Positions 1 to 58,387 of a DNA stretch of 58,387 bases are shown here, in pieces. The translations under genes and the position numbers were made by a program. The DNA lies in sequence record MF476925.1; one strand, 5' to 3'. How positions within the stretch are numbered: position 1 is the stretch's first letter; each line of letters starts with the position of its first letter. This DNA comes from Klebsiella phage YMC16/01/N133_KPN_BP. The notes beneath the pieces were generated by a model. The model searched no databases, was not told where the DNA came from, and saw only the letters and a list, made by a program, of their open reading frames with translations.

Positions 1-375
1 ATGATCGATGTCATCAAGGGCATTGAAACGCATCTGGAAGAGACCGGTCAGGTCGACAGCGATGACGATGAAGGCGATACCGGTGAGTTCAGCGATCGTA
101 TTCAGGCTCTGATCGATGAAGTTCCGGAAGAGCCTACCGCGGATGACATCACTGACCTGTTCAAAAAGTATCTGCCGAAAGACCTTGAAAAGGCAGAACG
201 TGACGCCCGCGCTGAAATCATCAAGCCGATTCTGGCCGGCGTGAAAGCGCCGAAGGCTTCTGCCGTGAAGGACGACGACCGCCGCGACGTCATGATCGAT
301 GTCATCAAGGGCATTGAAACGCATCTGGAAGAGACCGGTCAGGTCGACAGCGATGACGACGAAGGCCTGGTGTAA
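1..375 (+). CDS. 3' end of early acidic repeat protein whose start is at 57334 (gene spans the window boundary; circular/permuted assembly)
   Basis: Bases 283-375 continue the reading frame of the 57334 ORF. Bases 1-60 and 292-351 are identical (IDVIKGIETHLEETGQVDSD). Bases 61-291 repeat 57688-57917. The protein ends DSDDDEGLV-stop. Confidence 0.5.
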   Translation: MIDVIKGIETHLEETGQVDSDDDEGDTGEFSDRIQALIDEVPEEPTADDITDLFKKYLPKDLEKAERDARAEIIKPILAGVKAPKASAVKDDDRRDVMIDVIKGIETHLEETGQVDSDDDEGLV

Positions 376-404
376 CCAGTAGCTTGTGCTGACGGGGGTG
401 GCGA

Positions 405-1721
405 TTGCCACCCCTTTGCTTTGGGACCAACCTGATGCTGAAAACGATAGACGGAAAGGAAATCATAGACCTCGGATGGGGAGGTGTGCATTCCGAGCGC
501 AGTCCGTCGGCCGCTGACCGGTGGATGACATGCCCGGGCTCCGTGCAGCTGAGCCGCCTCTTTGACGATGAGACGAGCATCTTCGCCGCGGAGGGCACCT
601 GCGCCCACTGGGTACGCGAGCAGTGCCTGAATGACCGGTCGAAAAATGTCGAGGACTACGTCGGTACCATCATCCACGCCGACGGCTATTATTTTGAAGT
701 GCTACCAGAATGGGTAGGGTACCTGCAGCCTACGATCGACTGGGCGCGTGATGTCAGCAGCAAACGTGGCTGCGAGATGGTGGTCGAGTATCGCGTAGAC
801 CTGTCCCGCTGGCTTCCCGGCGACTCCGGCACTCTCGATCTTGGGATCACCACTCCCGATATCATTTACATCAATGATGAGAAGTTCGGACAGGGTGTGC
901 TGGTGGAGGCCGAGCGCAACCGGCAGCAGATGATTTACGCTCTCGGCTTCTGGTGGAACCACGCGCGCCACAAGACAAAGGCCACGACCTTCCGGCTGAT
1001 GATCGACCAGCCTCGCGCCCGCGGTGGCGTCGGCAGCTCGTGGGATTGTACGCTGGAAGAGCTGCTGGAGTTCGGCGAAGAGGTGCGCGTTGCCGGCGAG
1101 CTGACGCGTGACCCGGATGCTCCGCTGGTGGTGAGCGCCAAAGGCTGTCAGTTCTGCAAGGTCCTGTCCAATCTGGCGTGCCCGGCTGTGCACGACTTTG
1201 TCCAGGAGGCCGCTGGCCTCAACCCCGATATACCAAAACTCAAGGGGCCACTTATCATGCCTGAAATTGAAAAACTGGATATGGACCGCCGGCTTTACCT
1301 GCTGAAGAACTGGTCCATCATCTCGAAATACGGCAGCCTGCTGAAGCAGAACGTGCTGTCTGATGCCATGAGCGGCGAGCCCACCCCCGGCTTCAAAGCC
1401 GTGGCTACCGAAGGTGACCGCATGTGGGTCAGCGAAGAAAGTGTGATCGAGTTCTTCAGAGGGAAAATTCCGGATAAGGATTTATTCAATAAACAGTTGA
1501 AATCTCCTGCGCAAGTTGAGAAGATAGCCGGCACGCGGACATGGAAACAAGCGCAGGAGCTTATCGTCCGCCCTGAAGGCCCACCAGCCCTTGTTCCGGA
1601 ATCGGACAAGCGGCCGGCGCTGATGAATCTCACGGATCTGCTGGACGACCTGGACAGCGATGAGGACGACTTCTCCGACTTAATCGGAGAGGACGACGGG
1701 GATTTAGACTCCCTGATTTAA
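405..1721 (+). CDS. PD-(D/E)XK nuclease, DUF2800/Cas4-like, with Cys cluster CQFCx7C; C-terminal acidic tail ...GEDDGDLDSLI
   Basis: 438-aa ORF at the head of the polymerase module. The C-terminal Cys motif is typical of Cas4/RecB-family Fe-S nucleases. It sits in the DUF2800-DUF2815-PolA arrangement common in phages. Confidence 0.55.
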   Translation: MPPLCFGTNLMLKTIDGKEIIDLGWGGVHSERSPSAADRWMTCPGSVQLSRLFDDETSIFAAEGTCAHWVREQCLNDRSKNVEDYVGTIIHADGYYFEVLPEWVGYLQPTIDWARDVSSKRGCEMVVEYRVDLSRWLPGDSGTLDLGITTPDIIYINDEKFGQGVLVEAERNRQQMIYALGFWWNHARHKTKATTFRLMIDQPRARGGVGSSWDCTLEELLEFGEEVRVAGELTRDPDAPLVVSAKGCQFCKVLSNLACPAVHDFVQEAAGLNPDIPKLKGPLIMPEIEKLDMDRRLYLLKNWSIISKYGSLLKQNVLSDAMSGEPTPGFKAVATEGDRMWVSEESVIEFFRGKIPDKDLFNKQLKSPAQVEKIAGTRTWKQAQELIVRPEGPPALVPESDKRPALMNLTDLLDDLDSDEDDFSDLIGEDDGDLDSLI

Positions 1722-1724
1722 CAC

Positions 1725-1765
1725 CGTACTACTGACCAACGAACCGACTATCAACGTACTACTGA
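1725..1765 (+). repeat. Two exact direct copies of CGTACTACTGA spaced 30 bp apart, upstream of the SSB-like gene
   Basis: Copies at 1725-1735 and 1755-1765, 12 nt upstream of the ATG at 1777. Confidence 0.6.
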
Positions 1766-1776
1766 GGAATGTAAAA

Positions 1777-2382
1777 ATGGCTGAACAACGCTTAGGTACC
1801 TTTGCCATCACTGGTCGTCTGTCCTTCCCGAGAATCTGGAAGAAAGAGAAGTCCGCGGAAGAGGGTAAGCCGAAATACTCGCTGAACATCATCATGGACC
1901 CGGATACCTCTTCTGGCGAGAAGAGCATCGAGACCTGTGAGAGAGAGCTGAAAGCTCTGGCTAAGCGCACCTGGCAGGACAAAGGCCCGAAAGTGCTGAA
2001 AGCTCTGGACCGTAAACGCATCCCGCTGCTGGATGGTGACGAGTGCACCAACAGCGAAGGCGACGTTTATCAGGGCTATGAAGGCATGAAGATCTTCAAA
2101 TGCGCCAACCCGCGCGAATTCAAGCGCCTTGATCGTGATAAGTCCATCCTGACCGAAGAGACAGCTGATGAGCTGAATCGCCTGTACGGTGGCTGCTACG
2201 TTGACGCGGTGGTGAACATCTACGCCATCACCGATAAAGCGCGCGGCGGGAACGGTATTTTCGCTTCGATCGAAGTCCTTCGCCACCGCAAAGACGGCGA
2301 ACCGTTCGGTGCAGCACCGGTTGACGAGGATGATTACCTCGATGACCTGGGTGACGACGAAGACGAAGACGACCTGGTTTAA
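1777..2382 (+). CDS. Single-strand DNA-binding-like protein (DUF2815 type) with acidic C-terminal tail ...DDLGDDEDEDDLV
   Basis: 201-aa ORF between the nuclease and the polymerase. It has an acidic C-terminus like SSB tails. A Rho-independent terminator lies immediately downstream. Confidence 0.5.
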   Translation: MAEQRLGTFAITGRLSFPRIWKKEKSAEEGKPKYSLNIIMDPDTSSGEKSIETCERELKALAKRTWQDKGPKVLKALDRKRIPLLDGDECTNSEGDVYQGYEGMKIFKCANPREFKRLDRDKSILTEETADELNRLYGGCYVDAVVNIYAITDKARGGNGIFASIEVLRHRKDGEPFGAAPVDEDDYLDDLGDDEDEDDLV

Positions 2383-2399
2383 TCCACGTCAAATTTATC

Positions 2400-4637: not shown

Positions 4638-4904
4638 ATGCCGAAAGTTTATAATAAGCATTACCCGGGCGTTCCGGATGACGCGGTCTGCATTGAGAGA
4701 ACCACGGAGTGGGGAAACCCATTCCCGGTTCGCGGTGGCCGCACGCGAGACCAGGCTATCGACGCCTTTCGTGAATGGGCGCTGTCCGATCCCGATTATG
4801 TCCGCGCCGTCAAACGCGAGCTGAGCGGCAAGGACCTCGTCTGCTGCTGTAAGCCGAAGCGCTGTCACGGCGACGTCCTGCTGGAGATCGCTAATGGGTC
4901 TTGA
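4638..4904 (+). CDS. DUF4326-like protein (GNPF motif, CCCKPxxCHG)
   Basis: 88 aa. WGNPF and C-terminal Cys/His motifs are typical of the DUF4326 family found next to phage polymerases. Confidence 0.45.
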   Translation: MPKVYNKHYPGVPDDAVCIERTTEWGNPFPVRGGRTRDQAIDAFREWALSDPDYVRAVKRELSGKDLVCCCKPKRCHGDVLLEIANGS

Positions 4905-5175
4905 ATCAACGATCGAAGATGTCTGCTGCGAGGATGCGGAGGCTGACGGGTGGATGGTCAAAAAGATCAGCTTCCCCGGCAGCCGCGGCGCACTGGACCG
5001 GATGTTCATTAAAAATGGGCGTGTCGTTTTTATCGAGTTCAAGCGTCCCGGGAAGCTGAAAAATACCAGCACCGGCCAGAACGACACCATCAAAGACCTT
5101 ATTGCCGCCGGCGCCGAGTGCCACGTCGTGGACACTCCGCTGGCCGTCTACCGTATTTTAGGGATTAAACGATGA
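4894..5175 (+). CDS. VRR-NUC domain nuclease
   Basis: 93 aa. Core FPGSRGALDRMFIKNGRVVFIEFKRPGKLKNTSTGQ matches the VRR-NUC PD-(D/E)XK fold (D..EFK..). Confidence 0.7.
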   Translation: MGLESTIEDVCCEDAEADGWMVKKISFPGSRGALDRMFIKNGRVVFIEFKRPGKLKNTSTGQNDTIKDLIAAGAECHVVDTPLAVYRILGIKR

Positions 5176-6656
5176 GCGGATTACGACCGCGTTCTGCGCT
5201 CCGCAAGAGCCAGCAGGTCGCGTACAAACAGATTATGGGTGGGCCGGCCACGATGCTGTGGCTGGATATGGGCTCCGGGAAAACCGGCACATCGCTGACG
5301 GCCATTCGTGACCTTCTGGACTGGGGCTATGCAGCCCACGTGCTGGTCATCGCGCCGCTGCTGGTAGCCGAAGAGACCTGGCCGGACGAAATTGAGACGT
5401 GGGAGCACACCGTCGTCCTCGATTATGAGGTGCTGACCGGTGACCCTGACCGCCGGTCCAACCGTGCGCTGCGCCTCCCGGAGCTGAGCATTATCAACGG
5501 GGAGAACATCCCTTGGCTGGTCGAGTTCTGGGAAGAGCGCGGCGGGTGGCCCTACGACGTCGTCTTTATCGATGAGATCTCGCGATTCAAAAACCCGACG
5601 AAGCGCAACAAGCCGACCAAAAAGCAGGTGCGAGATGTCACTGAGCGCGTTCTGAAGGCGCTGCCGCGCGGTACCACTGAGGAAGATGCGGAGAACGCCC
5701 TGCGTAAGGAGCTGAAGAAGCTGCGCGGCGGGATCACCCGCTTCGGTGCGCTGTGCTCCGTGCTGCCGTACATCGATATCATGGTGGGCCTGACAGGTAC
5801 GCCCGGCCCAAATGGCCTGATCGACATCTGGGCTCAGTTCTATCTGCTGGACCAGGGCCAGCGTCTCGGCAGCAACATCACCGCCTATAAGAAGCGTTGG
5901 TTCGACAGCGATTACATGGGCTACAAATACGAGCCAAAGCCTCATGCATTCGGCCAAATCGTGGAGGCCATCCGCGACATCACGGTCAGCATCGAGTCAG
6001 ACGCCGAGCTACCTCCGGTTGTATATAACACTCTCCGTTGCAAGCTGCCTGCGAGCGTCATGAAGCAGTATCAGAAATTTGAGCGGACATTGTTGCTGGA
6101 AGAACACGATGTCAAAGCCGTCAATGAAGGGGTATTAACTGGCAAATTATTGCAGCTGGCGAATGGTTCTGTTTACCGGGACAACGAAGCCACAGGTGAG
6201 CGCGAAGTTATCGAGATCCACTCCCGGAAGCTGGAATATCTCGATCGCGTTATCGAAGAGGCCAACGGCAAACCCGTCATGGTGGCGTACAGCTACCAGT
6301 TCGACCTGGATAAGCTGAAGAAGAAGTACCCGCACGCGGAGGTCGTCGGTGAGACGAAGAACCTCCAGAAGCGCTGGAATGCGGGGGAAATCCAGCTGTT
6401 ACTGGCGCATCCGCAGTCTGCCGGTCACGGCCTGAACCTGCAATACGGTGGCTGTATTCTCGTATGGTATGGCCTCTGCTGGTCGCTGGAATATTACCAG
6501 CAGCTGAACAAGCGCCTGCACCGCCCGGGGCAGAAGGACACCGTGTTCATCCACCATATCATCTGCGAGGGAACAGTAGACGAAAGGGTGATGAAAGTTC
6601 TGCCTGACAAAGCCGCCACCCAGGACATGTTAATTCAGGCCACGATGCGCAAATAG
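5172..6656 (+). CDS. SNF2/DEAD-like superfamily 2 helicase
   Basis: 494 aa. Walker A DMGSGKTGT, motif II FIDEISRF, C-terminal helicase domain (QSAGHGLNLQ, HRPGQ). Confidence 0.8.
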   Translation: MSGLRPRSALRKSQQVAYKQIMGGPATMLWLDMGSGKTGTSLTAIRDLLDWGYAAHVLVIAPLLVAEETWPDEIETWEHTVVLDYEVLTGDPDRRSNRALRLPELSIINGENIPWLVEFWEERGGWPYDVVFIDEISRFKNPTKRNKPTKKQVRDVTERVLKALPRGTTEEDAENALRKELKKLRGGITRFGALCSVLPYIDIMVGLTGTPGPNGLIDIWAQFYLLDQGQRLGSNITAYKKRWFDSDYMGYKYEPKPHAFGQIVEAIRDITVSIESDAELPPVVYNTLRCKLPASVMKQYQKFERTLLLEEHDVKAVNEGVLTGKLLQLANGSVYRDNEATGEREVIEIHSRKLEYLDRVIEEANGKPVMVAYSYQFDLDKLKKKYPHAEVVGETKNLQKRWNAGEIQLLLAHPQSAGHGLNLQYGGCILVWYGLCWSLEYYQQLNKRLHRPGQKDTVFIHHIICEGTVDERVMKVLPDKAATQDMLIQATMRK

Positions 6657-6674
6657 AGAATCATTCCGCGACCC

Positions 6675-7652: not shown

Positions 7653-8300
7653 ATGACTCAGGATCAGTTCCGACGTGCCGCGGGTATCACTGACGCGCTG
7701 GCGCAGCAGTGGTACCAGCCCATCACCGAAGCGATGCAGCGCTTCCAGATCAACACTCCGAAACGTCAGGCTGCTTTCCTGGCGCAGATCGGCCACGAGA
7801 GCCGCGGTTTTACCTGCGTGAGCGAGAGCCTTTACTACAAAGACCCGGAGCGCATCGCCCGGATCTTCAAGTCAGGCTTCGACCTCAATAAGAACGGCAA
7901 GGTCGACCTGGCCGAGGTAGAGTTCGCGAAGGGCTATGTCCGGAACTCTGTGAAGCTGGCGAACCGGGCATACGCGAATCGCCTGGGTAACGGGAGCGAA
8001 GCCAGCGGCGACGGGTACAAATTCCGCGGGCGCGGCCCGATGCAGACGACTGGCCGGCGCAACTATGAGCTGACCGGGCAGGGCATCGGCGTCGACCTCA
8101 TCGCGGATCCAGATCGTCTGTCCGACCCGAAGGTGGGCGCGCTGGCCGCTGGCTGGTACTGGAGCGTCAACGGCTGCAACGCGCTCGCCGATAAGGACCA
8201 GTTCACCGCTATCACCGTGCAGATTAACGGCCCTGCCAAACTCGGCCAGGATGACCGGGTGGCGCGCTGGAAACTGGCTAAATCTGTTTTATTGGCTTAA
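7653..8300 (+). CDS. Endolysin, glycoside hydrolase family 19 (chitinase-like lysozyme)
   Basis: 215 aa. The GHESRGF...YYKDPERIA...FRGRGPMQTTGRRNY pattern is typical of GH19 phage endolysins. Confidence 0.75.
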   Translation: MTQDQFRRAAGITDALAQQWYQPITEAMQRFQINTPKRQAAFLAQIGHESRGFTCVSESLYYKDPERIARIFKSGFDLNKNGKVDLAEVEFAKGYVRNSVKLANRAYANRLGNGSEASGDGYKFRGRGPMQTTGRRNYELTGQGIGVDLIADPDRLSDPKVGALAAGWYWSVNGCNALADKDQFTAITVQINGPAKLGQDDRVARWKLAKSVLLA

Positions 8301-8323
8301 TTATTCAACCAAACGTTGAATAA
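8301..8323. promoter_or_regulatory. Perfect palindrome TTATTCAAC-CAAAC-GTTGAATAA
   Basis: 9-bp arms with a 5-nt spacer, between the endolysin and the methyltransferase. Confidence 0.5.
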
Positions 8324-8380
8324 ACAACCGCAGCTGGGGTAAGATGAAGCCCTCTACTACACGATACGGCGGAACTTACT

Positions 8381-9451
8381 TTGGCTGCTTATTACAATGA
8401 GTGGGATAAAGACACGGCCCAGTGGCTCCGGGAACTCATCAAACGCGGCCTGATACCCGACGGCTATGTTGACGACAGGAGCATTGTCGATGTCCATCCA
8501 GATGACCTCAAAGAATTTACCCAGTGCCACTTCTTCGCTGGAATTGCAGGATGGCCTCTCGCCCTCAGAATGGCTGGATGGCCTGATAGCCGACCTGTAT
8601 GGACAGGAAGCCCTCCCTGCCAGCCCTTCAGCAACGCCGGCAAGGGGCTCGGGGCAGACGACCCCCGACATCTCGCTCCCGCCTTTGCCCGCCTCGTCAG
8701 AGAGTGTCGCCCTGCAAGGCTTTTTGGCGAACAGGTTAGCGCAGCGGTTAAGAAAGACCTGTGGGTCGATGATCTACGGACTCGACTGGAGGCAGAAGGC
8801 TACGCCTTTGGATTTTCCGTACTGCCAGCTGCTGGCGTCGGTGCCCCGCATAAAAGAGAGCGAATCTACTTCGGAGCCGGGCTTCTGGTATACCCCGACG
8901 ACGAACGTCAACCCACAGCCAGCGACAGCACGCGGCCTGCAGACACTGTTCGGTCAAGCTCGACACCTGGCGGCGTGGCCGACGGCAGCGGCTTCGGACC
9001 CATCTGGCGGTGGCTCAGCGAGCATCGCGCTCCGCAAGCTATCAGGGGACAAGCGACCGTCGGGGGCGAGTCTGCATTCTGGGCTCCGCGACTTCGTGCA
9101 ACTGGCGGCGTGGCCGACGCCAACGACGAGAGACTGGAAAGATGGGTCGGAATGCTTCAACGTCCCGACGAACTCATTGCTGGGACGTGTGGTGTGGCTG
9201 GCGGACCAGCCTATTCGCATAACAGCTTCTGGGACAGTGCTGACTGGCTCGGATGCCGCGATGGGAAGCTCAGGCCAGTTAGACCCGGCTCATTCCCGCT
9301 GGCTCATGGGATTCCCGGACGTGTGGTGCGACTGCGCGCCTACGGAAACGCGATCGTCCCGCCGCTCGCCGCGGAGTTCATCCTCTCGTTCGAAGAAGCC
9401 ATCGAAGACCTCATCGGATCTGGACGAGCTGATTTAGACGAACTCATTTGA
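8381..9451 (+). CDS. DNA (cytosine-5)-methyltransferase, apparently split across two frames by two compensating frameshifts; both frames end DLDELI
   Basis: Frame of 8381 carries motif I (FFAGIAGW), IV (PCQPFS), VI (LFGEQV), VIII (HKRERIYF) and X (AYGNAIVPPLAAEFI). The overlapping frame (8466..9437) carries the TRD-like repeats (AAWPTPTTRDWKDGSEC, AAWPTAAASDPSGGG) and motif IX RWLMGFPDVW. Confidence 0.7.
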   Translation: MAAYYNEWDKDTAQWLRELIKRGLIPDGYVDDRSIVDVHPDDLKEFTQCHFFAGIAGWPLALRMAGWPDSRPVWTGSPPCQPFSNAGKGLGADDPRHLAPAFARLVRECRPARLFGEQVSAAVKKDLWVDDLRTRLEAEGYAFGFSVLPAAGVGAPHKRERIYFGAGLLVYPDDERQPTASDSTRPADTVRSSSTPGGVADGSGFGPIWRWLSEHRAPQAIRGQATVGGESAFWAPRLRATGGVADANDERLERWVGMLQRPDELIAGTCGVAGGPAYSHNSFWDSADWLGCRDGKLRPVRPGSFPLAHGIPGRVVRLRAYGNAIVPPLAAEFILSFEEAIEDLIGSGRADLDELI

Positions 9452-9457
9452 CCAACG

Positions 9458-9476
9458 ATTCAACTATTCGTTGACT
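9458..9476. promoter_or_regulatory. Imperfect palindrome ATTCAAC-TATTC-GTTGAC immediately downstream of the methyltransferase
   Basis: Same half-site family as 8301-8323. Together they flank the MTase gene. Confidence 0.4.
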
Positions 9477-9868
9477 AAACTACAAAGCGTTGGCTATAGT
9501 GAAATTGTTCTCCTGACAGGTCGTGGCGCCGCACCCCGGTTTCCTCCGTTTCCCGGGATGCGGCGCACCTTCCTATGACACACAACAGGCGAGGGAATTA
9601 CCGGAAGCAACGTTGCGACTCGACACGCAGCCCACTGTGGTAAGTAGTTTCCTCTCCGTTGTGTGTGAATGCGCAGGCTGCAGCGCCCAGATTACATGCC
9701 CGTATCCCGAACTGGTTAAGACATGATTCTGGAAAGACGATGGACCACAGAACGCCATTAATGGCGGCGGGTAACCGCAATGAGGAAGACGCTCCACGGT
9801 CTCAAACTCGTCATGAAAAGGTGGAAGCCCTAAGCCGGATATCAGCCCCGGCCACCACAACGCAACGG

Positions 9869-9942
9869 CGCGGTATAGCATCAATTGGTAATGCAGCGGA
9901 CTCATAATCCGGGAGCTGAAGGTTCGAGTCCTTCTGCCGCCG
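9869..9942 (+). tRNA. tRNA-like element (anticodon CAT; Met/Ile2-like) or attP core; no encoded CCA; 1:72 and 27:43 mismatches
   Basis: Manual fold: acceptor 6/7 pairs. D-stem GCAT/ATGC with loop CAATTGGTA. Anticodon loop CTCATAA. T-arm GAAGG-TTCGAGT-CCTTC. The integrase stop and C-terminal codons overlap its 3' half. Confidence 0.4.
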
Positions 9943-10948: not shown

Positions 10949-10954
10949 ACCGTT

Positions 10955-11290
10955 CTTCCTTGTGTGCAGTGACCACTCCGGGCCGTGTGCAATCCAGTGT
11001 GCAGCCCGAAAATTATGGATCGAGGAAGTACAGGTTTTTCAATGGTCTGGCAAACGTCGAGCGTGATCGAAAATGGCCGTGTTTTTGCGTGGTGCACAAT
11101 GGAATTCAATAAGCGAAATCAGTATCTTAACGGCGAAAAAATCTTCGCCATTGCCCCCATGATGGACTGGACGGACTGTTTCTAAGTAGCTGAAATCGCG
11201 TCGATATTTATTTTCGATTTTCCCTGTGTGCAAATTCTGTGCAGTGCGTTTCCGGGTGCACCCGGCGTGGTAGCTCGTGTGCAGTTCTCA
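10955..11290. repeat. Non-coding region with at least 7 copies of a TGTGCA-type motif between int and the small terminase (candidate Int arm-type sites and/or cos/terminase binding sites)
   Basis: Motif copies seen at about 10957, 10994, 11006, 11089, 11228, 11241 and 11274. Confidence 0.4.
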
Positions 11291-11358: not shown

Positions 11359-12039
11359 GTGGCAACGACCAAAACGACGAAGCGTGGCCCCGGCAGGCCA
11401 CCGAAAAATCCCCGGGCGAAGAAGGCGGAGACCCCAGCTGCCGATGGACTGGACGACCTGATCGGTGCCCCCGAGCAGCCTTCAGACGAAGACCTGTCGC
11501 TGGATATGGGTACCGTCTACGGCGGCGTGTCGGCGCACTGGCTGAGCCACGTCTTCGGGATGGACCGGGTGACGGTGAAGAAGCGCCTCGCGGAGGGCAA
11601 GTGCAAGATCGTCGGCAAGGGCCGGACCGGCGCGCCCATGTACCTGGTCCGCGATGCGGCTGCCTGGCTGGTTAAGCCACAGGTGGACATCACGAGCTAC
11701 ATTAAATCGTTGCGCCCGAATGACCTGCCGCCGATCCTGAACGCCGCCTACTGGGACGCGATGCTGAAGCGCCAGAAGTGGGAAGAGAACGCCGGCGACC
11801 TGTGGCGCACGAACGACGTGATGGACGTCTTCGGCAGTCTCGCGGCCACCCTGAAGTCGACTATCCAGCTTTGGCCGGAGCAGGTCTCCGGGCTGACGGA
11901 TAAGCAGCGGCTGGAGCTGGAGCAACGGTGCGACGGCCTGCTGAACGCTATTCACCACATCCTGGTGGAATCCCCGAACGGGCGCCGCACCCCGAGCAGC
12001 ATGGAAGAGCCTCCGGAGAAGGAGGACGACCTTGTTTAA
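11359..12039 (+). CDS. Terminase small subunit (GTG start) with acidic C-terminal tail ...PPEKEDDLV
   Basis: 226 aa. Basic N-terminus (GRPPKNPRAKK). Sits immediately upstream of, and overlaps, the large terminase. Confidence 0.55.
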   Translation: MATTKTTKRGPGRPPKNPRAKKAETPAADGLDDLIGAPEQPSDEDLSLDMGTVYGGVSAHWLSHVFGMDRVTVKKRLAEGKCKIVGKGRTGAPMYLVRDAAAWLVKPQVDITSYIKSLRPNDLPPILNAAYWDAMLKRQKWEENAGDLWRTNDVMDVFGSLAATLKSTIQLWPEQVSGLTDKQRLELEQRCDGLLNAIHHILVESPNGRRTPSSMEEPPEKEDDLV

Positions 12040-18934: not shown

Positions 18935-19207
18935 ATGCCAAAAGTAAAAGCAGTCCACCAGCTGGTTATTGACGGGCAGGTCATTGCCCCCGGTAAGACT
19001 GTCAACGTCGCCAAAGAGCACCTTGACCGCCTTGTTACTCTGGGCGCCGTGACCCTGGCTACCGGTGAAGCGGCGGAAGACGCTGTAGTCACCGAAGCGG
19101 CCAAAGAGCAGGTTGCCCAGGTGACCGAAGGCTCCGACGCCCCGGCGGAAGAAAAGTCCGCTAAAGGCGGCAAGTCTGCCAAAAAGTCTAACGACGATCT
19201 GGTGTAA
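18935..19207 (+). CDS. Small head-assembly/packaging protein at the lambda FI position, with acidic C-terminal tail ...KKSNDDLV
   Basis: 90 aa. Synteny only. Confidence 0.4.
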   Translation: MPKVKAVHQLVIDGQVIAPGKTVNVAKEHLDRLVTLGAVTLATGEAAEDAVVTEAAKEQVAQVTEGSDAPAEEKSAKGGKSAKKSNDDLV

Positions 19208-47097: not shown

Positions 47098-47291
47098 CAC
47101 AGGTCCTCCACCGGTGCGCTGTAACGCCATTTGCAGATGGCGCGCTCGGAACGCGGGCTGCTCTGTCCCCGCCGTTTGCAGTCAGGGCACTCAACGTAGT
47201 AACGGACGCCGCCGGCGCCCACCGTTTGCTTCACTTCCGCGTCGCCCCCGCAGGGGCAAACGAGTAATGGTTTGAGGTTGGCTGGCATCAT
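47097..47291 (-). CDS. Lar-family restriction-alleviation-like zinc-finger protein
   Basis: 64 aa. LKPLLVCPCGG...YYVECPDCKRRG resembles the Lar/Rac restriction alleviation proteins (CPFCGG...C..C). Confidence 0.4.
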   Translation of the reverse strand: MMPANLKPLLVCPCGGDAEVKQTVGAGGVRYYVECPDCKRRGQSSPRSERAICKWRYSAPVEDL

Positions 47292-48358
47292 CAGATCAGG
47301 TCCTCATCTTCGACGTCGCCAGTAAGTGACTTCGGCTCGTCCAGCTCTTCGCCGTTGACGTGGCTGATCTTCCAGCCCTTCAGCGCGTCTACCATCGACT
47401 GCACTTCGTCGTCGCTCATGTCGCGCAGCGCTTCACCGCCCAGTGACACGACAACGCCGTCAACCAGCGAGTCCAGCGCATCCACGGTCAGCAGCAGAGT
47501 AGCCTTCGCCAGCGCGATACCGGATTCGTCTTCCGTGTCGGCGCCGGCGTCGTCCTGCGCCATGTCGATCAGCGCGTCAGGCCAGGATACCGATTTGAAT
47601 GCCAGGTTTTCGTTGAGGATGAAGCGCGTGCCGCCGTGCAGGTGGTCGTCGTAGTAGCCCAGCTCCAGCGACACGACCTGGTAGTCTTCGCTCAGCAGCT
47701 CGCTCAGGGTCGAAGAGTCGAGATCGACGCTTTTCCCAGAGAGCACCTGGGACCCCTCCAGCTTGCCCTTCGCAGTGAACGCTTCGCCCACTGACAGCTG
47801 CGACGGGACAACCGTGCCGGCTACCCAGTCCGTGAACTGCGTGACGACGGGCTTCTTCGCCGTCAGCGGCTGCACGGGTAACGAGCCGAGCACACGACGG
47901 ACCGCGCCCAGCACCAGCTCCGCCTTCTTCGCGCTGGTGGTTTCAACGTAGACCCAGCTGCCGCTGATCAGCACGTTCACGCGGCTGTAGTCGATCAGCG
48001 CGTTTTCCATCATCCCGATGATGACGTCGTTCTTCAGGCCCTGCTTCTCGTCCTTCGTGGGGACGCGGGCATACTTTTCTTCCCAGTCCTTCAGGCGCTT
48101 ATCCAGCTCGCGCTTGACGATCTTGTTCGGGACAATGCGCAGCGCGGTTTCCAGCGTCAGCGCGTACTTGTTCTTCGCCAGCACGGTCAGCAGCTCATCG
48201 TTGCCGTCGATGGTGGGCACGAAGCCTGAGCGTTGCATCTGAAAGGTGGCCGGATCGCCGGCAGGCAGCACAGCCAGGCGCTCGGGTAGTATGTCGAACG
48301 GTACCTTGTCTGCCTTCAGCAGCCGGTACACCAGAAAACTCTTGAATCCTGCTTTCAT
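47291..48358 (-). CDS. Recombination-associated protein RdgC-like with acidic tail ...DVEDEDLI
   Basis: 355 aa. N-terminal FKSFLVYRL compared with E. coli RdgC FKNLMVYRL, and similar domain length. Confidence 0.6.
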   Translation of the reverse strand: MKAGFKSFLVYRLLKADKVPFDILPERLAVLPAGDPATFQMQRSGFVPTIDGNDELLTVLAKNKYALTLETALRIVPNKIVKRELDKRLKDWEEKYARVPTKDEKQGLKNDVIIGMMENALIDYSRVNVLISGSWVYVETTSAKKAELVLGAVRRVLGSLPVQPLTAKKPVVTQFTDWVAGTVVPSQLSVGEAFTAKGKLEGSQVLSGKSVDLDSSTLSELLSEDYQVVSLELGYYDDHLHGGTRFILNENLAFKSVSWPDALIDMAQDDAGADTEDESGIALAKATLLLTVDALDSLVDGVVVSLGGEALRDMSDDEVQSMVDALKGWKISHVNGEELDEPKSLTGDVEDEDLI

Positions 48359-50594: not shown

Positions 50595-50735
50595 TCATGC
50601 TCCTGCATTCAGGCCGCGCAGGGCGACCCGAAAGTAATGTTTTGCGAGGATCCGCGCTTCAGTGGTCCTGATGGCTGCGAACTCACGCGCAAGCCGGTAG
50701 GCCGGGTGATTCCTGTATGCCTGCTGCCGGTTCAT
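50595..50735 (-). CDS. Unannotated 46-aa basic ORF (MNRQQAYRNHPAYRLAREFAAIRTTEARILAKHYFRVALRGLNAGA)
   Basis: Fills the gap between two ORFs with ATGA coupling. Coordinates approximate to +/-1. Confidence 0.25.
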   Translation of the reverse strand: MNRQQAYRNHPAYRLAREFAAIRTTEARILAKHYFRVALRGLNAGA

Positions 50736-50968
50736 ATCAGCGACTCCTGCACCTCGATTATCAGGCACTGCGCCGGCATCTCATCCGCGCGGCTCGTTAC
50801 CACTATCGCCGCCTTTTGGGTGATGCTTACGCCGATCTGTGAGGCGGCGGCGCTAAACTGTTTTTGCACGCGGGTAACGTCGCCGCCATCGACCGCCCAC
50901 AAGGTGCGGTCGCCGGGCTTCATAGTCCGCAGTAAATCTATCTTGCTGGATACCGGGTTGATCATCAT
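50732..50968 (-). CDS. Hypothetical protein
   Basis: 78 aa. Preceded directly by the 19-bp direct-repeat motif. Confidence 0.4.
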   Translation of the reverse strand: MMINPVSSKIDLLRTMKPGDRTLWAVDGGDVTRVQKQFSAAASQIGVSITQKAAIVVTSRADEMPAQCLIIEVQESLI

Positions 50969-52096: not shown

Positions 52097-52720
52097 CTAG
52101 ATCAGTTCGTCTTCTTCGGCGTCTGCTGCTGCCTGCGGGTGCAGGTAGTCACCGATGCCGCGGGTGTACGGGATGCGGAGGGACAGGCCGATGGTGGCGG
52201 TGGTGAACAGCACAAGAGCGGTACCGAAGTTCACCCCTGTCTTCATCGTCTGGCCGTCCCGCTCCATGAAATTGTAGCGGCCGTCTGGCTCGTACACGAT
52301 CACGTCGTACTGCAGGTTATCCCGCCACCAGTTCGACACCGGCTCGTAGGGCAGCAGCATCATGCCAGGGCGGCCGGCAGCCTGCTGCTTACGGGCGTGC
52401 TGGATGAACTCCACCTTGCGGTCAAACGGCGGATTGCACCACCAGTCGGCGGGCCAGTCGAGCTGCAGGCTGTCGTCGCCACGATCGAGGCCGAAATAGT
52501 CCACGATGCCGCACTTGCTGGTGGCCTTCTCTGCCGCGACGTCGAACAGGAACGGGCGCCCGTAGAGGTGCTGCGCGTCATAGAACTGCCGCCACGAGGT
52601 GGCCCAGAAATTCTTGTCCCCGTCGGCCGTTGACGACTTCTTGCCGGGGTTAAATGATCCAGCCATAAGGCTCCTTAAAACGTCAGTTGCGAATTCAACA
52701 TTCAGGTGAGATTCTGGCAC
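52097..52720 (-). CDS. Phage Dam-family N6-adenine DNA methyltransferase (NPPF motif) with acidic tail ...DAEEDELI; GTG start
   Basis: 207 aa. FWATSWRQFYD...DWWCNPPFD matches the phage Dam (pfam05869-type) layout. Confidence 0.65.
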   Translation of the reverse strand: MPESHLNVEFATDVLRSLMAGSFNPGKKSSTADGDKNFWATSWRQFYDAQHLYGRPFLFDVAAEKATSKCGIVDYFGLDRGDDSLQLDWPADWWCNPPFDRKVEFIQHARKQQAAGRPGMMLLPYEPVSNWWRDNLQYDVIVYEPDGRYNFMERDGQTMKTGVNFGTALVLFTTATIGLSLRIPYTRGIGDYLHPQAAADAEEDELI

Positions 52721-53380: not shown

Positions 53381-53717
53381 GATGTAACCTAATAATCCGC
53401 CGATTACCTTTTATTTTGGGGCGTCGGCGGATTAGGTATCTCCCCGAACTGGTTCAATTTCATATAGATAGCCCTCAAAGTTACCTAATAACTCAATAAC
53501 CTAATATATGAACTACACATATGTAAATATTGTCGTCGTACATATGAACGGTGAGATCATGTGTCACACATATAAATACATATGCACATATAAGGGGTAG
53601 GAAAGATTGGGTAACTTCAAATTTTAGGTAAAAACGCTCGCAAGCATATGAAAAATAACATGAAAGTGCGCGTACCCATTCAGTAACATGACCTCTTTAT
53701 CAGGTAACAGGTAACAA
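53381..53717. other. AT-rich non-coding region with repeated CATATG/ACATATG motifs (candidate origin of replication or regulatory hub next to the primase)
   Basis: At least 5 CATATG-containing motifs between 53519 and 53650 (CACATATGTAAA, GTACATATGAAC, CACACATATAAATACATATGCACATATAA, GCATATGAAAAA). Confidence 0.4.
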
Positions 53718-53746
53718 CAAAAAACCCGCCGAAGCGGGTTTTGTTT
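53718..53746. terminator. Bidirectional Rho-independent terminator AAAAAACCCGCCGAAGCGGGTTTTGTTT between the spanins and the primase
   Basis: Hairpin flanked by an A-run and a T-run. Confidence 0.7.
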
Positions 53747-56585
53747 AAATCAGGTCGTCATTTTCCATATCATCGCCTTCACCTTCCTCCAGCGCTCGAT
53801 GTTTTTCCAGCGCCTTCTTCAGCATCTCCTTGCCCCTGAGACTGAGCTTTCCATCCTCCTGAAGGAGAGATACGTCCCTGGTATAGACCGACAGCTTCGT
53901 CAGGTTGCCATCAATTCTGACCACCGTATTCTGCGCGGCTCGGAATCCCTGCGGCACCAGAAACGAGGCTCCGCTCTTCGTATTGAGGCTTCTGTCGACC
54001 CCGTGGATCTGAAAAGCCTCCTTCAGATGAGACATGATGAGGATGTCGCTGGTGATGCACGGGTACCTGTCGTCATCGAGCAGGTCCTGGAGAATCGTCT
54101 CTGCTTCTGACCGGGCGTTGTTAGCCACTATCGTCCGGTAGCGCGTGCGCGGGGCACGTTCCTTCGGGCGATAATACTCGCTGAACTGGTATTTCTCGAA
54201 ATAGGCTTTGAACTGCCACGGGTGGTCCTTAATGTGCTCGTACAGCGTCTGGACATAGTGCACCCCTTCCTTCTCCCGGTTGGCCTCGCGCCACTCGGTC
54301 ACCGCGTCGTCCGTATGGAAGCGGGTGAACACCACCAGATAGCGGTCGTCGCTCTCGTCCAGCGGCAGGGCGTTCTCGTGGTTGGTCATCATGTAGAAGT
54401 TCGCGAGGTTTTCCTGCTGCTCGGCATCCTTGTTCATGGCGCGCACAGAGGCCGTGGAGTTCGAAATCAGTGGCTTCATCTTCTCCAGAACTGCGTAGGC
54501 TTCCAGGCCGCCGATTTTCACCTCTTCCAGACCAACGAAGCACCGGTTCGAAATCCAGCCGTTGTGCTTTTCCTTCAGCACGTCGTTGTTGATCTCGTTG
54601 CAGTTCTGTTTACCGAGCATACGGGTGATCAGCGTCTTCAGCGTGGACTTACCTTCGTTACGGGACCCCTTTACCAGCAGCGCATACGGCAGCTTGACGC
54701 CCGGGAATTTCACACAATGAGCGACGAAATCAGACACCAGAGCGCGCTCGCGGTCATCCGGGAACAGGTCCTTCATGAGTCGTTTATACAGCTTGACGCC
54801 CTCGTTACCCCGGTACGCGGTGCGCTCGATGATGGCAGGCCGGTAGAGGTTAAGCAGGCACTCTCCACCGACAATAGGCAACCTGTCATCCGGGTGCTGC
54901 GGGTCGTAGGTAGTGCGAATGGCGCGCGGCACAGGGTTATTGGACCCCAGAGCTGCCGACAGAGCCGGGATGCGCGGTGTCCCGTTCTCCGTCACCCCAT
55001 AGGTGTCGATCGCTTCCTTGAAGTAGCGGTTGTTGAACGCCTCTTTCCCCATAGGACGCATCTCATTGTCTGACAGGCAGTAGAATGCGTTCTCGCTGAC
55101 CACGAAAACCACGTCGTCCAGCCATTCAGGGCGGTTATCATCCCCGTTTCCGATGAGCCGGTTAACCTTCCGCTCAGTGACTTCCTTTCGAACGAAAGCC
55201 TTCGTCATCGGCGAGCCAAGCTCTTTGGCCTTTTCGATGATTTTCGGGATGAAGTTCTCCCGGCGCCACGCCTGCAGGAAGTCGGCTGGTGCGCCGGCGA
55301 TGGCATGGCATACCTTCTGCAGGTCGTCCACGTTCTCCGCGATGCGGATCAGGCGGAACACCTCGGTGCAGTATTCCTCCAGGGTCTTCGGCTTTTTGCG
55401 CTTCGGAGTGGTGTCGCCGATAAGGTCGTCTTCATCGTCGTCCTCCTCATCATCGCCAAAATCAGGCAGCAGGGCAGCGGCCATCTCTGTCTGCTCTTCC
55501 TCAATCTCGGCTTCGATCTCCGCCAGCGCCTCCAGCACGGCAGGCTGCTGGCGCATCAGGGCTTCCATCGCCTTGTACGACTCCAGCTCTACCGGCGAGC
55601 TGATATCATCCTTGTCGATGCCGTCATCCAGGTCGCCGAACAGCACCAGACGCCCGGTGTCAAAGGTGGTGTGCTGGCCGTGGGCCACGTCGGAGTGCGA
55701 GTGGTCAGAGTGGATAAAGGCGTCGTCGTAGATGCGGACTGACGCGGCGCCGGAGGCACCAAACGGGCGGTAACGTCCTTCCCCCACATACTCGTAATGG
55801 TCAGACAGGAACTGCTCGATGAAGTCTTCCGGGGTGTACGCGCGGTGGACGGCCGTGATAATAGGGGCTGTCGTTTTCTTGTCTTCCGGGTGCTGCCGGC
55901 TGCCGGTGATGCCTTTGGCACTGTCGACGCCATCCGGGCGAACAGGCCAGCTGTCAGGGTCGGTAATGTCGTACTTTTTGAACGCCTTTTTAGGGTCCAG
56001 GAACTTGCCATCGAACGTCTGGTGGAAGAACTCTCCATCAGAGCAGACGCTGGGCATAAACATCAGCTGCGCGGTCACGAATGACTCAGCGGCGACGGCC
56101 ATCATATTCTCGTCAACCAGCTCCGCGACGTAGCGGACCACCAGCTCGTACTCATCTTTGGTGACATCAGCGGCCAGCGGCACGATAACGCGGAAACGCG
56201 GCTTCTCGATGGTGTGCTTGCGGGTGGTGTGGACGTGATAGGCCAGGCCTTTGAGCCCCTCTATACCGCCGCGGTAGATAATCTCGTCCCAGACAGTGTC
56301 CGCATGGTCATCGATGTCTAGCGTAACGACCGAACGGCATTCCAGATTCACTTTGCGGCGCTTGCCGTCTTTGAACTGGCCGCCTACGAAATAGCCCTTA
56401 TTCTTGAGGTTGCGTTGCTCTTCAACCGACATATCGAGGTAGTCGGCGAGGGTAACGTCATCGCGAACTGGTTCTTCGAAACGAGAGACGAGTTCCTGCC
56501 ACGTCAGCTCTTCGTTTTTTACTACCGACAGGTTTTTCTTACCTGGCTTGCCGAAGGAGACCTTCAGCGTGCGGGTTTGACTCAT
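53745..56585 (-). CDS. Primase-helicase (P4 alpha / D5-like) with acidic tail ...EGDDMENDDLI
   Basis: 946 aa. N-terminal primase-polymerase-like region (VVTLDIDD). C-terminal P-loop (VKGSRNEGKSTL) as in D5/P4-type helicases. Confidence 0.65.
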   Translation of the reverse strand: MSQTRTLKVSFGKPGKKNLSVVKNEELTWQELVSRFEEPVRDDVTLADYLDMSVEEQRNLKNKGYFVGGQFKDGKRRKVNLECRSVVTLDIDDHADTVWDEIIYRGGIEGLKGLAYHVHTTRKHTIEKPRFRVIVPLAADVTKDEYELVVRYVAELVDENMMAVAAESFVTAQLMFMPSVCSDGEFFHQTFDGKFLDPKKAFKKYDITDPDSWPVRPDGVDSAKGITGSRQHPEDKKTTAPIITAVHRAYTPEDFIEQFLSDHYEYVGEGRYRPFGASGAASVRIYDDAFIHSDHSHSDVAHGQHTTFDTGRLVLFGDLDDGIDKDDISSPVELESYKAMEALMRQQPAVLEALAEIEAEIEEEQTEMAAALLPDFGDDEEDDDEDDLIGDTTPKRKKPKTLEEYCTEVFRLIRIAENVDDLQKVCHAIAGAPADFLQAWRRENFIPKIIEKAKELGSPMTKAFVRKEVTERKVNRLIGNGDDNRPEWLDDVVFVVSENAFYCLSDNEMRPMGKEAFNNRYFKEAIDTYGVTENGTPRIPALSAALGSNNPVPRAIRTTYDPQHPDDRLPIVGGECLLNLYRPAIIERTAYRGNEGVKLYKRLMKDLFPDDRERALVSDFVAHCVKFPGVKLPYALLVKGSRNEGKSTLKTLITRMLGKQNCNEINNDVLKEKHNGWISNRCFVGLEEVKIGGLEAYAVLEKMKPLISNSTASVRAMNKDAEQQENLANFYMMTNHENALPLDESDDRYLVVFTRFHTDDAVTEWREANREKEGVHYVQTLYEHIKDHPWQFKAYFEKYQFSEYYRPKERAPRTRYRTIVANNARSEAETILQDLLDDDRYPCITSDILIMSHLKEAFQIHGVDRSLNTKSGASFLVPQGFRAAQNTVVRIDGNLTKLSVYTRDVSLLQEDGKLSLRGKEMLKKALEKHRALEEGEGDDMENDDLI

Positions 56586-56788
56586 ATCAGCTCCCTGTCA
56601 CGCAAGTCTTTTAATTTGAGTTCGATCAGCTCCAGCATTGAGTCTGGAACGGTGTGGTACTTCCCCGAATGCCAGTCCTTTGCCCGCTGGTAACTACGTC
56701 GGGTTATGGTGGCTACTTGCTGCAGGGTCAGACCGTATTCTTTGACTAGCGAACGAAACTTCGCAGTATTGGGATGTATACTTTCCAA
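56582..56788 (-). CDS. HTH DNA-binding regulator
   Basis: 68 aa. LTLQQVATITRRSYQRAKDW HTH. Confidence 0.45.
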   Translation of the reverse strand: MESIHPNTAKFRSLVKEYGLTLQQVATITRRSYQRAKDWHSGKYHTVPDSMLELIELKLKDLRDRELI

Positions 56789-56882
56789 AGTGGAGTCCTC
56801 TGTGGCGCCGTATTTAGAGCAATACTATCAGAGGAATCTTAGGAGGTGCAACTGTTAGCCGATAATTCGACTAACAGTTGAA

Positions 56883-57131
56883 TCAGATGACGAACTTGAG
56901 CAGCTCAGACTGGAGGATATTGCCGTTGGCGAGTTCCACGATTTGCTTCACGCGCTTCGGCGGGACTCGCCCGGCTTCAATCCATTTGTAGACGTTCTGG
57001 TAGGACACTCCTAGGCGCTTCGCCAGGAGCATAATGCTGCGTTTTCCCTTAGCGTCCGGGGGGCACGCCTGCAGCAGCAGGTCATGCAGCGGACCTAAGT
57101 CTCCGTACCGGCCCGCTGGTTTGATGGTCAT
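56883..57131 (-). CDS. Cro/YdaS-like HTH regulator
   Basis: 82 aa from the internal Met. LLAKRLGVSYQNVYKWIEAGRVP is a typical Cro/CI-type HTH. Confidence 0.5.
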   Translation of the reverse strand: MTIKPAGRYGDLGPLHDLLLQACPPDAKGKRSIMLLAKRLGVSYQNVYKWIEAGRVPPKRVKQIVELANGNILQSELLKFVI

Positions 57132-57185
57132 AGTTGCTCCACTCAATAGATGGTTGAATGATTGCAGCATACAGCAGCCAGGCAT

Positions 57186-57333
57186 TCGTGATCAAGTAGA
57201 ACGCAAGAACACGTTGCAACACGCAAAAGAATTTTCAACTTTTTATTGAATTGCCGAGATGACATGTGCTTAAATCTGTTCAAGCCGAAAACGTTCGGCC
57301 ACCCAAAACAACTAACAGTAACCGGAGAACATT
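57186..57333. promoter_or_regulatory. Divergent early control region with palindromes GTTGCAAC (57213-57220) and TTCAAC-TTTTTA-TTGAAT (57234-57251)
   Basis: Between the leftward Cro-like gene and the rightward first replication-module gene. Confidence 0.45.
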
Positions 57334-58387
57334 ATGTCCATTGAGAAGGCTATTGCCGACCAGACCGCCGCGATTGAAAAGAACACCGAAGCCCAAGAAA
57401 AGGCCACCGAAGTTCAGCTGCAGGTTTTAGCTGCACTGCAGGCCCTGGCCGCTGCTGGTGGTACCACTACCGTCACCTCTGAAAAGGGTGCAGGCAAAAC
57501 CCGCACTACCAAAAACACGGATAAATCCACTGATGCGGACCCGATCTACTGGCACATCCCGGGCACCGAAGAGTTCGGCTCCGTTGATACTGAAGCCGAG
57601 TGGAAAAAGCTGAAGAAGGCGAAGGCTAAGGCTGTCAAGATCCCAGAGTCGAAGTACCAGACCCTGGTTGAAGCGGCCAGCGGCACCGACGATGAAGGCG
57701 ATACCGGTGAGTTCAGCGATCGTATTCAGGCTCTGATCGATGAAGTTCCGGAAGAGCCTACCGCGGATGACATCACTGACCTGTTCAAAAAGTATCTGCC
57801 GAAAGACCTTGAAAAGGCAGAACGTGACGCCCGCGCTGAAATCATCAAGCCGATTCTGGCCGGCGTGAAAGCGCCGAAGGCTTCTGCCGTGAAGGACGAC
57901 GACCGCCGCGACGTCATGGGCCGCTGCTGGTGGTACCACTACCGTCACCTCTGAAAAGGGTGCAGGCAAAACCCGCACTACCAAAAACACGGATAAATCC
58001 ACTGATGCGGACCCGATCTACTGGCACATCCCGGGCACCGAAGAGTTCGGCTCCGTTGATACTGAAGCCGAGTGGAAAAAGCTGAAGAAGGCGAAGGCTA
58101 AGGCTGTCAAGATCCCAGAGTCGAAGTACCAGACCCTGGTTGAAGCGGCCAGCGGCACCGACGATGAAGGCGATACCGGTGAGTTCAGCGATCGTATTCA
58201 GGCTCTGATCGATGAAGTTCCGGAAGAGCCTACCGCGGATGACATCACTGACCTGTTCAAAAAGTATCTGCCGAAAGACCTTGAAAAGGCAGAACGTGAC
58301 GCCCGCGCTGAAATCATCAAGCCGATTCTGGCCGGCGTGAAAGCGCCGAAGGCTTCTGCCGTGAAGGACGACGACCGCCGCGACGTC
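57334..58387 (+). CDS. Early acidic repeat protein (5' part), continues into 1..375; as assembled it is interrupted by a 470-bp out-of-frame tandem duplication
   Basis: ATG at 57334 with AGGAGA-like Shine-Dalgarno. Frame breaks at 57907 (…RRDVMGRCWWYHYRHL-stop) where the sequence jumps back to a copy of 57447 onward. Confidence 0.45.
57448..58387 (+). repeat. Exact 470-bp tandem duplication (57448-57917 = 57918-58387), most likely an assembly artefact of a repeat-containing gene at a circular junction
   Basis: Direct comparison of the two segments. 470 is not a multiple of 3. Confidence 0.6.

Follow-up and report, generated by a model that had tools for sequence, protein, structure and literature searches.

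Unrelated proteins can be gathered on a single hub by an acidic C-terminal tail that ends in hydrophobic residues. This is established for two clients in phage T7, for four in phage T4, and for the bacterial networks built on SSB, the protein that binds single-stranded DNA, and on the beta-clamp. In T7 itself, gp2.5 and gp4 are the only proteins that end in acidic residues plus Phe (EDGDF and NDTDF), and these tails dock on the gp5 polymerase. In T4, gp43 (EKASLDFLFG-COOH), gp33, gp55 and a loop of the ligase (LDFLFD) all bind gp45 (PMC6212786, PMC2988020), while MuC and Mor of phage Mu carry a beta-clamp-binding motif, Qx[DE][LM]F (bioRxiv 10.1101/2025.01.04.631326). The C-terminal moiety of the small terminase subunit (TerS) of lambda and P22 binds the N-terminus of the large subunit, TerL (gpNu1–gpA and gp3–gp2, respectively; PMC9611059). 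Here we analysed a stretch of 58,387 nucleotides from Klebsiella phage YMC16/01/N133_KPN_BP (sequence record MF476925.1; hereafter the window), in which ten proteins of DNA metabolism and packaging end in a common tail, an acidic run followed by Leu and Ile or Val. As in T7, a gp2.5-fold SSB and a primase-helicase end in the same flexible acidic tail with a hydrophobic last residue (DEDDLV and ENDDLI in the window, WDEDEV and DDEDEV in phage Enc34). The window tails differ from those of T7 in closing with L-[IV] rather than D-F and in having 10–12 clients rather than two, including methyltransferases, RdgC, TerS and a head protein and, in relatives, an integrase and AlpA.

Genes were called with a homology-seeded codon model, which gave 70 genes in the window and replaced the calling of longest open reading frames (ORFs), unreliable for high-GC relatives. 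The ten C-termini listed in the original prediction were all found where it had placed them (gene ends at 375, 1721, 2382, 9451, 12039, 19207, 47291, 51677, 52097 and 53745), and Pfam matches upheld its annotations of the DUF2800 nuclease, Enc34-type SSB, C5 methyltransferase, DUF1441 TerS, RdgC, Dam and DUF5906/VapE primase-helicase. Among 572 six-frame ORFs of at least 30 amino acids (aa), 15 end in L[IV], and acidic residues precede this dipeptide in 12 of the 15. The pattern [DE][DEGS]L[IV] closes 11 of the 70 called genes, against 0.025 expected from amino-acid composition (binomial P ~3e-26), and only one of 385 non-gene ORFs; the pattern was set after the data had been seen, but with so large an excess this makes no difference. 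The excess of tails is real and far beyond chance. The codons for Leu, for Ile or Val and for the acidic residues, and the stop codons as well, all differ among the ten tail genes, so selection has acted on the peptide and not on a DNA repeat or an embedded ribosome-binding site. Among the called genes of the window, PolA, the SNF2 helicase, the integrase, the endolysin, TerL and all structural proteins are without the tail.

The tail has the architecture of known tethering peptides: a folded domain, a variable linker rich in Pro, Gly, Ser, Ala or Glu, an acidic run, and two aliphatic residues that lie at the free carboxylate or beside it. The consensus pooled from 120 collected tails is D(-6)-[D/I/L](-5)-[DE](-4)-[DE/S](-3)-L(-2)-[IV](-1), with an optional Gly after it. 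The last residue is Ile, Val or Leu in 116 of the 120, positions -3 and -4 are acidic in ~65%, and the hydrophobic residues lie at i, i+3 and i+4 (positions -5, -2 and -1). Tandem copies of the motif also occur (SDLIG...DLDSLI, EDLIG...DLDELI and DDLLGDDLEDLI). An AlphaFold (AF2) model of the SSB, made from a 65-sequence alignment, has a confident gp2.5-type core (mean predicted local distance difference test score, pLDDT, 89.8) and matches Enc34 ORF6 (5odl, E = 3e-13) and T7 gp2.5 (1je5, E = 9e-8). The pLDDT of the tail is 40–68, with the proximal DDYLDDL semi-ordered, and that of the last three residues is below 50, suggesting that the terminal motif is free rather than packed in cis.

The original prediction had made its case depend on the tail being conserved in orthologues from related phages, and we found it kept both at ~80% and at 37–57% identity. 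Our comparison set comprised 88 loci around relatives of the gpA-type TerL, mostly from IMG/VR. In two metagenomic relatives with ~80% aa identity to the window phage (L096 and L097), all nine testable tails are kept, and new tails are found on small accessory genes. In Phobosviruses, [DE][DG]LI or EDLL is found on RdgC, the product of the gene that follows the capsid gene (the post-capsid-gene protein), SSB, the ORF3-like early protein (DEDGLI), two small early proteins and the SNF2 helicase; their TerS and primase have no tail. Across the 88 loci the most frequent client is TerS, tailed in 49 of 79 cases. The tail is also present on SSB (19/27), the DUF2800 nuclease (9/25), VRR-NUC (6/36) and the C5 methyltransferase (3/12), and the post-capsid-gene protein has it in nearly all relatives. 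RdgC, the primase-helicase, the SNF2 helicase, methyltransferases and a resolvase carry it variably, as do a P4-type integrase and an AlpA-like protein in temperate relatives. From TerL it is absent (0/82), and from portal, capsid and tail proteins of the relatives essentially so (portal 1/68, capsid 0/53); protease has it in 0/61 cases and PolA in 0/26. That polymerase, helicase and integrase lack the tail, as the original prediction had it, is thus correct for the window and wrong as a general rule, since all three are tailed in some relatives; a DNA polymerase of a different family in L098 (phrog_1252; 10492–12474), for example, has ...NDQLDDLI appended to it. For SSB, 69 of 70 database clusters of homologues (37–98% identity) close with an acidic run plus [LMVF][IVL]; the linker before it differs in length and composition and takes up poly-Ser/Gly insertions. 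Conservation together with frequent gain and loss on single orthologues is the behaviour of a short linear motif.

The terminal residues differ between lineages and are common to non-homologous proteins within a genome; each lineage has a dialect of its own. In the window phage the form is D[DE]L[IV], in Phobosviruses EDGLI and LEDLI, and in Enc34 and the Chivirus SPN19 DDEV, which closes the primase, ORF3, the nuclease, SSB, TerS, the post-capsid protein and RdgC. Other clades have DDVV, x[AMQ]I, DD[LVI]A, DLGI or DLL, or the Gly-ended forms DL[VI]G, LIG, LLG and D[IL]FG. Single families vary in the same manner: DUF2800 nuclease orthologues end in ELQQLI, EDDDEV, LTADLI or DFDDLI, RdgC in DIEDLI (PspYZU01) or EDDDEV (SPN19), and the primase-helicase in DDEDEV (Enc34) or D[LS][TQ]DLL (L099–L101), with none in Phobosvirus. 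C5 methyltransferase ends follow the dialect of the genome that hosts them (LDELI, LIEDLL, LIGDLL, DRLLG, FEGLV and RELIG). When the tails of each protein family were shuffled between genomes (214 tails from 45 dereplicated genomes), the non-homologous tails of a genome were alike at 1.04 of the last 3 positions against 0.59 under the null (standard deviation 0.03; 0 of 5000 permutations; z = 15). The effect persisted without any tail filter, and structural proteins, taken as a control through the same permutation, gave 0.224 against 0.216, which is not significant.

There is a further subdivision within genomes. One variant of the tail tends to unite SSB, the ORF3-like early protein and the post-capsid head protein, and another unites enzymes and site-specific DNA binders. 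The first variant reads DDLV/EGLV in the window, and there are three instances each of EDGLI in Phobosvirus, DDVV in L022 and D[LV]A in L082. Similarity within the two classes exceeds that between them by 0.51 of 4 positions (2 of 5000 permutations), for classes that were themselves defined after inspection of the data. Four further genomes gave the classes partial support, in that the early protein and SSB always had LV, the nuclease mostly LI and the primase LL.

Set beside the other systems, the tails come near to the T4 clamp motif, in which several unrelated replication, transcription and repair proteins likewise carry an interchangeable hydrophobic-acidic C-terminal peptide on a linker. 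The T4 pattern L-D-x-L-PHI-(G)-COOH resembles LDELI, LDDLI, DEDLVG and EDLFG of the window phage and its relatives; T4 differs in having its own clamp (none turned up among the window proteins scanned), in aromatic rather than aliphatic residues, and in far fewer clients. The beta-clamp motif QL[SD]LF has a similarly short [DE]-L-hydrophobic core, which tethers diverse DNA enzymes and phage regulators to a DNA-bound ring, but the host motif proper (QL[SD]LF or QLxLxL) is not what we see: the tails have no Gln, end in I/V rather than F/L, and space their hydrophobic residues at i, i+3 and i+4. The tip of bacterial SSB (DDDIPF), by which many genome-maintenance enzymes are recruited, is, like these tails, an acidic, hydrophobic-ended hub code on a disordered linker, and Enc34 [WF]DDEDEV is similar to it. 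The polarity is reversed, however, as here enzymes as well as SSB carry the tip, and no window tail and none of the 70 SSB homologues contains Pro-Phe. With lambda and P22 the window shares a flexible C-terminal TerS segment beside a gpA-type TerL (GpA_ATPase and GpA_nuclease matches). Lambda gpNu1 even has LDELI in its gpA-binding C-terminal region, internally, 12 residues from the end, but no other lambda protein shares this peptide, whereas here it is also found on replication, recombination and modification enzymes. Lambda was accordingly rejected as a model, having no shared tail and an FI protein of different architecture.

We consider it probable that the tail is a short linear motif, tethered by a linker, through which many clients dock in trans on a common partner. 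The original prediction had proposed a shared docking peptide analogous to the T7 gp2.5 and gp4 tails, and conservation among orthologues, variable linkers, concerted change and the gp2.5 fold of the SSB all argue for it; that docking occurs in trans, and on a single receptor or at most two, is suggested mainly by the concerted change of dialect. The tail, borne on a flexible acidic or low-complexity linker, would have been appended independently to most of the DNA-transaction proteins. Its two end aliphatics, often joined by a third hydrophobic residue at -5 in an amphipathic PHI-x-x-L-PHI arrangement, would fit a hydrophobic pocket, and the acidic run would contact the basic rim of one common partner. 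The nuclease, SSB, primase-helicase, RdgC, the methyltransferases, TerS and the head protein would in this way be gathered at one place on the phage DNA, a 'toolbelt' such as that formed by the T4 clamp-binding tails or the T7 gp2.5 and gp4 tails.

As receptor, the N-terminal TerS-binding region of TerL and a part of the replisome (the SSB groove or the polymerase, for instance) are two candidates to which we give equal and modest credence; the host sliding clamp seems slightly less likely than either, and the rest of the weight falls on some other protein of phage or host. Alone among the phage DNA enzymes, TerL was never seen with a tail, which counts in its favour, as does the contact between TerS and TerL in lambda and P22, and it is a viable receptor at least for the tail of TerS; its N-terminus is strongly conserved, which neither supports nor excludes contact with that tail. 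The polymerase, which the original prediction had named as a possible hub, is a poor candidate because its family is exchanged in many tailed relatives and because it is itself a client in L098, so that the receptor here, unlike in T7, is probably not the polymerase. For the SSB groove it counts that, in Enc34 crystals, a neighbour's proximal tail occupies it (PMC5686142); the last 11 residues, however, were not visible in those crystals, and the AF2 model has the end of the tail free. A sliding clamp would fit the client spectrum and the likeness to T4 LDFLF(G) and the MuC and Mor motifs. No clamp or clamp-loader family was found in Pfam and PHROG scans of ~50 window proteins, which did not take in every small ORF and included no structure-based search. 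A conserved host pocket is doubtful because enterobacterial phages use three dialects (DDEV, DLI and DLE).

Several observations weigh against docking on one common receptor, and the two tail classes, as stated above, were defined post hoc. Some relatives, Salvo and AchV4 among them, have few or weak tails. The N-terminus of TerL is near-invariant across dialects, and as a co-evolving specificity element it is rejected. Each replisome protein, the polymerase included, is tailed in some genome, which makes each doubtful as a universal receptor, and clients such as integrase and AlpA are hard to reconcile with a hub in packaging or in the replisome. Tails on DUF2800, SSB or primase also persist in phages that lack a gpA-type TerL (E. 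coli phage 611R5 and a Jerseyvirus); in 611R5 (L007) the nuclease and SSB end in ...DLI and ...ALI. Finally, a scan for alignment columns that track the Gly-ending dialect in TerL, TerS, gpW, portal, protease, capsid, FII, Z, U and G gave similar top scores throughout (0.8–0.9), with phylogeny as a confounder.

Without any common partner, the tails could act in cis as autoinhibitory 'DNA mimics', each covering the DNA-binding surface of its own protein and thereby sharpening specificity. All clients do bind or act on DNA; Enc34 SSB without its C-terminal 21 residues binds double-stranded as well as single-stranded DNA, and in Enc34 crystals the proximal SSB tail sits in the groove of a neighbouring SSB while the last 11 residues are invisible (PMC5686142). 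We nevertheless regard this as unlikely. It explains the acidity of the tails but not a terminal dipeptide that is shared, and co-varies, across the non-homologous proteins of one genome, and one would not expect ten different DNA-binding folds all to require an identical terminal L-[IV]; the SSB end, invisible in the Enc34 crystal beyond its proximal part, is also disordered in the AF2 model, where only DDYLDDL is semi-ordered. Less likely again is that the tail serves as a C-terminal degron or stability tag, through which a protease or adaptor of host or phage would give phage DNA-transaction proteins a common lifetime. Bacterial degradation signals are known to include non-polar C-terminal residues, proteases act on many phage DNA regulators, and integrase and AlpA-type proteins are among the clients. 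Acidic residues near the C-terminus, however, usually weaken ssrA-type recognition, and the tails do not look ssrA-like, that is, with the last three residues non-polar and no acidic residues directly before them. Abundant, long-lived SSB, TerS and a virion protein (82% coverage) carry the tail, and phages whose enterobacterial hosts are close relatives have different dialects, which speaks against a host reader that is conserved.

The dialects DLGI and DLIG may resemble the C-terminal cargo peptides of encapsulins. A capsid-targeting signal that loads the tailed proteins into the head for injection, which the original prediction had offered as anti-restriction cargo, seems to us very improbable, although the tailed post-capsid-gene protein is indeed a virion component in the relative AchV4, recovered from purified virions with 24 peptides and 82% coverage (PMC7996906). 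The same liquid chromatography–tandem mass spectrometry lists 18 virion proteins, and none is SSB, DUF2800 nuclease, primase, early protein, TerS or RdgC (PMC7996906). Moreover, a 946-aa primase-helicase and a stoichiometric SSB would be implausible cargo, and TerS acts outside the head. Chance, a DNA-level repeat or a Shine-Dalgarno sequence embedded for the benefit of a downstream gene can be given next to no weight. The acidic codons GAG and GAA do resemble Shine-Dalgarno sequence, and TerS overlaps the start of TerL, but several tail genes precede terminator-like hairpins or long spacers rather than a coupled gene, and such explanations are refuted by the statistics in called and non-gene frames, by the variety of codons, and by conservation of the peptide across SSB homologues of 37–98% identity.

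We found no earlier description of a shared tail in these phages in the literature searched, whose coverage is incomplete and does not prove absence. Beyond what is established for T7, T4 and the bacterial networks, what is new is the scale, with 10–12 clients per genome; the breadth, which takes in methyltransferases, RdgC, TerS and a head protein and, in relatives, integrase, AlpA, resolvase, helicase and polymerase; and the distribution across Casjensviridae-like phages in lineage dialects with a possible two-tier structure. More tentatively, and with less confidence than we place in docking as such, we suggest that the tails may form a C-terminal address code that is genome-wide and specific to each lineage. 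A 5–6-residue acidic-aliphatic tail would be read by one or two receptor surfaces, of phage or host, and new DNA enzymes (a methyltransferase cassette, an integrase, a polymerase) would join by growing that tail. A second tier would separate the DNA-coating proteins (SSB, the ORF3-like early protein and the head protein) from the enzymes, and diversification would keep co-infecting relatives or satellites orthogonal. If one tail does bring most of a phage's DNA enzymes to a common partner, it would be a simple wiring rule by which newly acquired genes are integrated into mosaic phage genomes, and a signature marking small proteins of the DNA-transaction network. It would also help to find the hub around which replication, recombination, modification and packaging are organised in a large family that has been little studied (Chi, Enc34, Nazgul, Sano/Salvo and Phobos-like phages), and would raise the number of clients from the two of T7 and the four of T4 to more than ten, with integrase, excisionase-like proteins and a virion protein among these. 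The lineage dialects in turn suggest a mechanism of orthogonality between competing phages.

Table 1. Tail-bearing genes of the window and candidate members, with the C-terminal sequence of each product
Feature	Coordinates	Strand	Family match	Tail and remarks
ORF3-like early gene, 3' part	1..375	+		DDDEGLV; chimeric ORF; intact 226-aa L096 orthologue (5993-6673) also ends DDDEGLV
ORF3-like early gene, 5' part	57334..57954	+		no tail; aligns with N-terminal part of the L096 226-aa protein
DUF2800 nuclease (PD-(D/E)XK, Cas4-like)	405..1721	+	PF10926, 1e-65	internal SDLIG and terminal DLDSLI
gp2.5/Enc34-type SSB	1777..2382	+	PF10991	DEDEDDLV
C5 cytosine methyltransferase	8381..9451	+	PF00145	internal EDLIG, then extension SGRADLDELI
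TerS (DUF1441, gpNu1-like)	11359..12039	+	PF07278	KEDDLV after a P/E-rich linker
90-aa protein directly after major capsid gene ('FI position')	18935..19207	+		NDDLV after a Lys-rich linker
RdgC-like protein	47291..48358	-	PF04381, 2e-43	EDEDLI
78-aa protein	50732..50968	-	phrog_5988	VQESLI; weak or possible member
Early protein, 136 aa	51677..52087	-	no Pfam or PHROG match	DIDELI; kept in L096 and L097
Dam-type N6-adenine methyltransferase	52097..52720	-	PF05869	EEDELI; kept in L096 and L097
Primase-polymerase/SF3 helicase (DUF5906/VapE), 946 aa	53745..56585	-	Pfam	ENDDLI
68-aa repressor-like protein	56582..56788	-		RDRELI, same end in L096 and L097; weak or possible member

The 58.4-kb window is a siphophage genome, complete or nearly so, and by its sequence the phage is Casjensviridae-like. 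The nearest isolates are Phobosviruses (Casjensviridae: PspYZU01, Phobos and Ppu-503), with protein identity of 38–59%. Its packaging and head module is of lambda type (DUF1441 TerS, gpA-type TerL, gpW, gpB-type portal, protease, gpD-like decoration protein and capsid), and its replication module comprises the DUF2800 nuclease, the Enc34/gp2.5-type SSB, PolA, VRR-NUC, the SNF2 helicase and the primase-helicase. The ends of the window are repeated: 64–294 equals 57688–57918 and 64–291 equals 58160–58387, giving two right-end copies of 228–231 bp that are 100% identical to 64–294. This points to a circular or terminally redundant assembly in which a stretch of ~472 bp is duplicated. The repeat splits the ORF3-like early gene (~226 aa) into a 5' part and a 3' part (Table 1), and because the ends are redundant, the ORF at 1–375 is a chimeric 3' fragment. 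The tail that had been assigned to an early protein ending at 375 is real, but the ORF is not a complete gene.

The window SSB has no exact match on record in public assemblies. The SSB and PolA genes share a reading frame, with two stop codons between them, and a profile search of genome contigs with a PolA alignment found no relatives. GC-rich, terminator-like hairpins with T runs lie at ~376–415, 2383–2445 and 53700–53744, directly 3' of the stops of the early gene, SSB and the primase-helicase.

By tblastn against homologues, which align over the full length, the C5 methyltransferase gene is intact in one frame. An ORF of 323 aa that crosses it in another frame (8466–9437, + strand) also ends in SDLDELI, because of a diverged 14-nt tandem repeat (GATCTGGACGAGCT / GATTTAGACGAACT; 9410–9451). 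The gene caller of a public collection picked this alternative frame in L096, but homologues back only the 8381–9451 frame; a frameshift was ruled out, and the ORF at 8466–9437 is probably not a gene. The methyltransferase cassette (8300–9500) has 99% DNA identity with L096, whereas neighbouring genes have only ~80% protein identity, and its codon-usage score is negative; it looks like a recently exchanged accessory gene.

The post-capsid-gene protein (18935–19207; families f25, f35, f43 and f54 in relatives) is unlike lambda gpFI, being made of a small N-terminal domain, a Lys/Ala/Pro-rich linker resembling histone H1, and the acidic tail; in AchV4 its counterpart is abundant in the virion. 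TerL (12032–14146) has a family-conserved C-terminus of its own (~14100–14146), an acidic run-L-x-x-L-[AG]-x-x-L-[AG] that reads ELEDLGRLLA here; it is distinct from the client tail and, by analogy with lambda gpA, is probably a portal-binding end. A 155-aa protein (45656–46123, - strand) ends in LLPDLDDDED, acidic and without the terminal hydrophobic dipeptide, and may have a degenerate tail or one of a different kind.

Outside the family, Salmonella phage celemicas (L008, a Jerseyvirus) has the same replication module with a different terminase and shows a mini-dialect, ...DLE(A), on its primase (783–2969), DUF2800 nuclease (4772–6241) and a 77-aa protein (493–726). The contig of L098 also encodes an HU-like protein (990–1262) and an Acb2/Tad1-like anti-defence protein (634–990). 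In the window, a tyrosine integrase gene lies on the opposite strand between the methyltransferase and TerS genes (9902–10948, - strand), which makes it probable that the phage is temperate; this integrase has no tail, in contrast to the P4-type integrases of several relatives. Accessory genes, all on the - strand, encode a HerA_C/YjgR-like ATPase (48864–50360), a MazG-like pyrophosphatase (phrog_5658; 43543–44958), a PNKP-type HAD phosphatase (45186–45647) and a YpsA/SLOG-family protein (39809–40324), and the HerA_C/YjgR-like ATPase ends in a strongly basic C-terminus, RANHQRPRRR.

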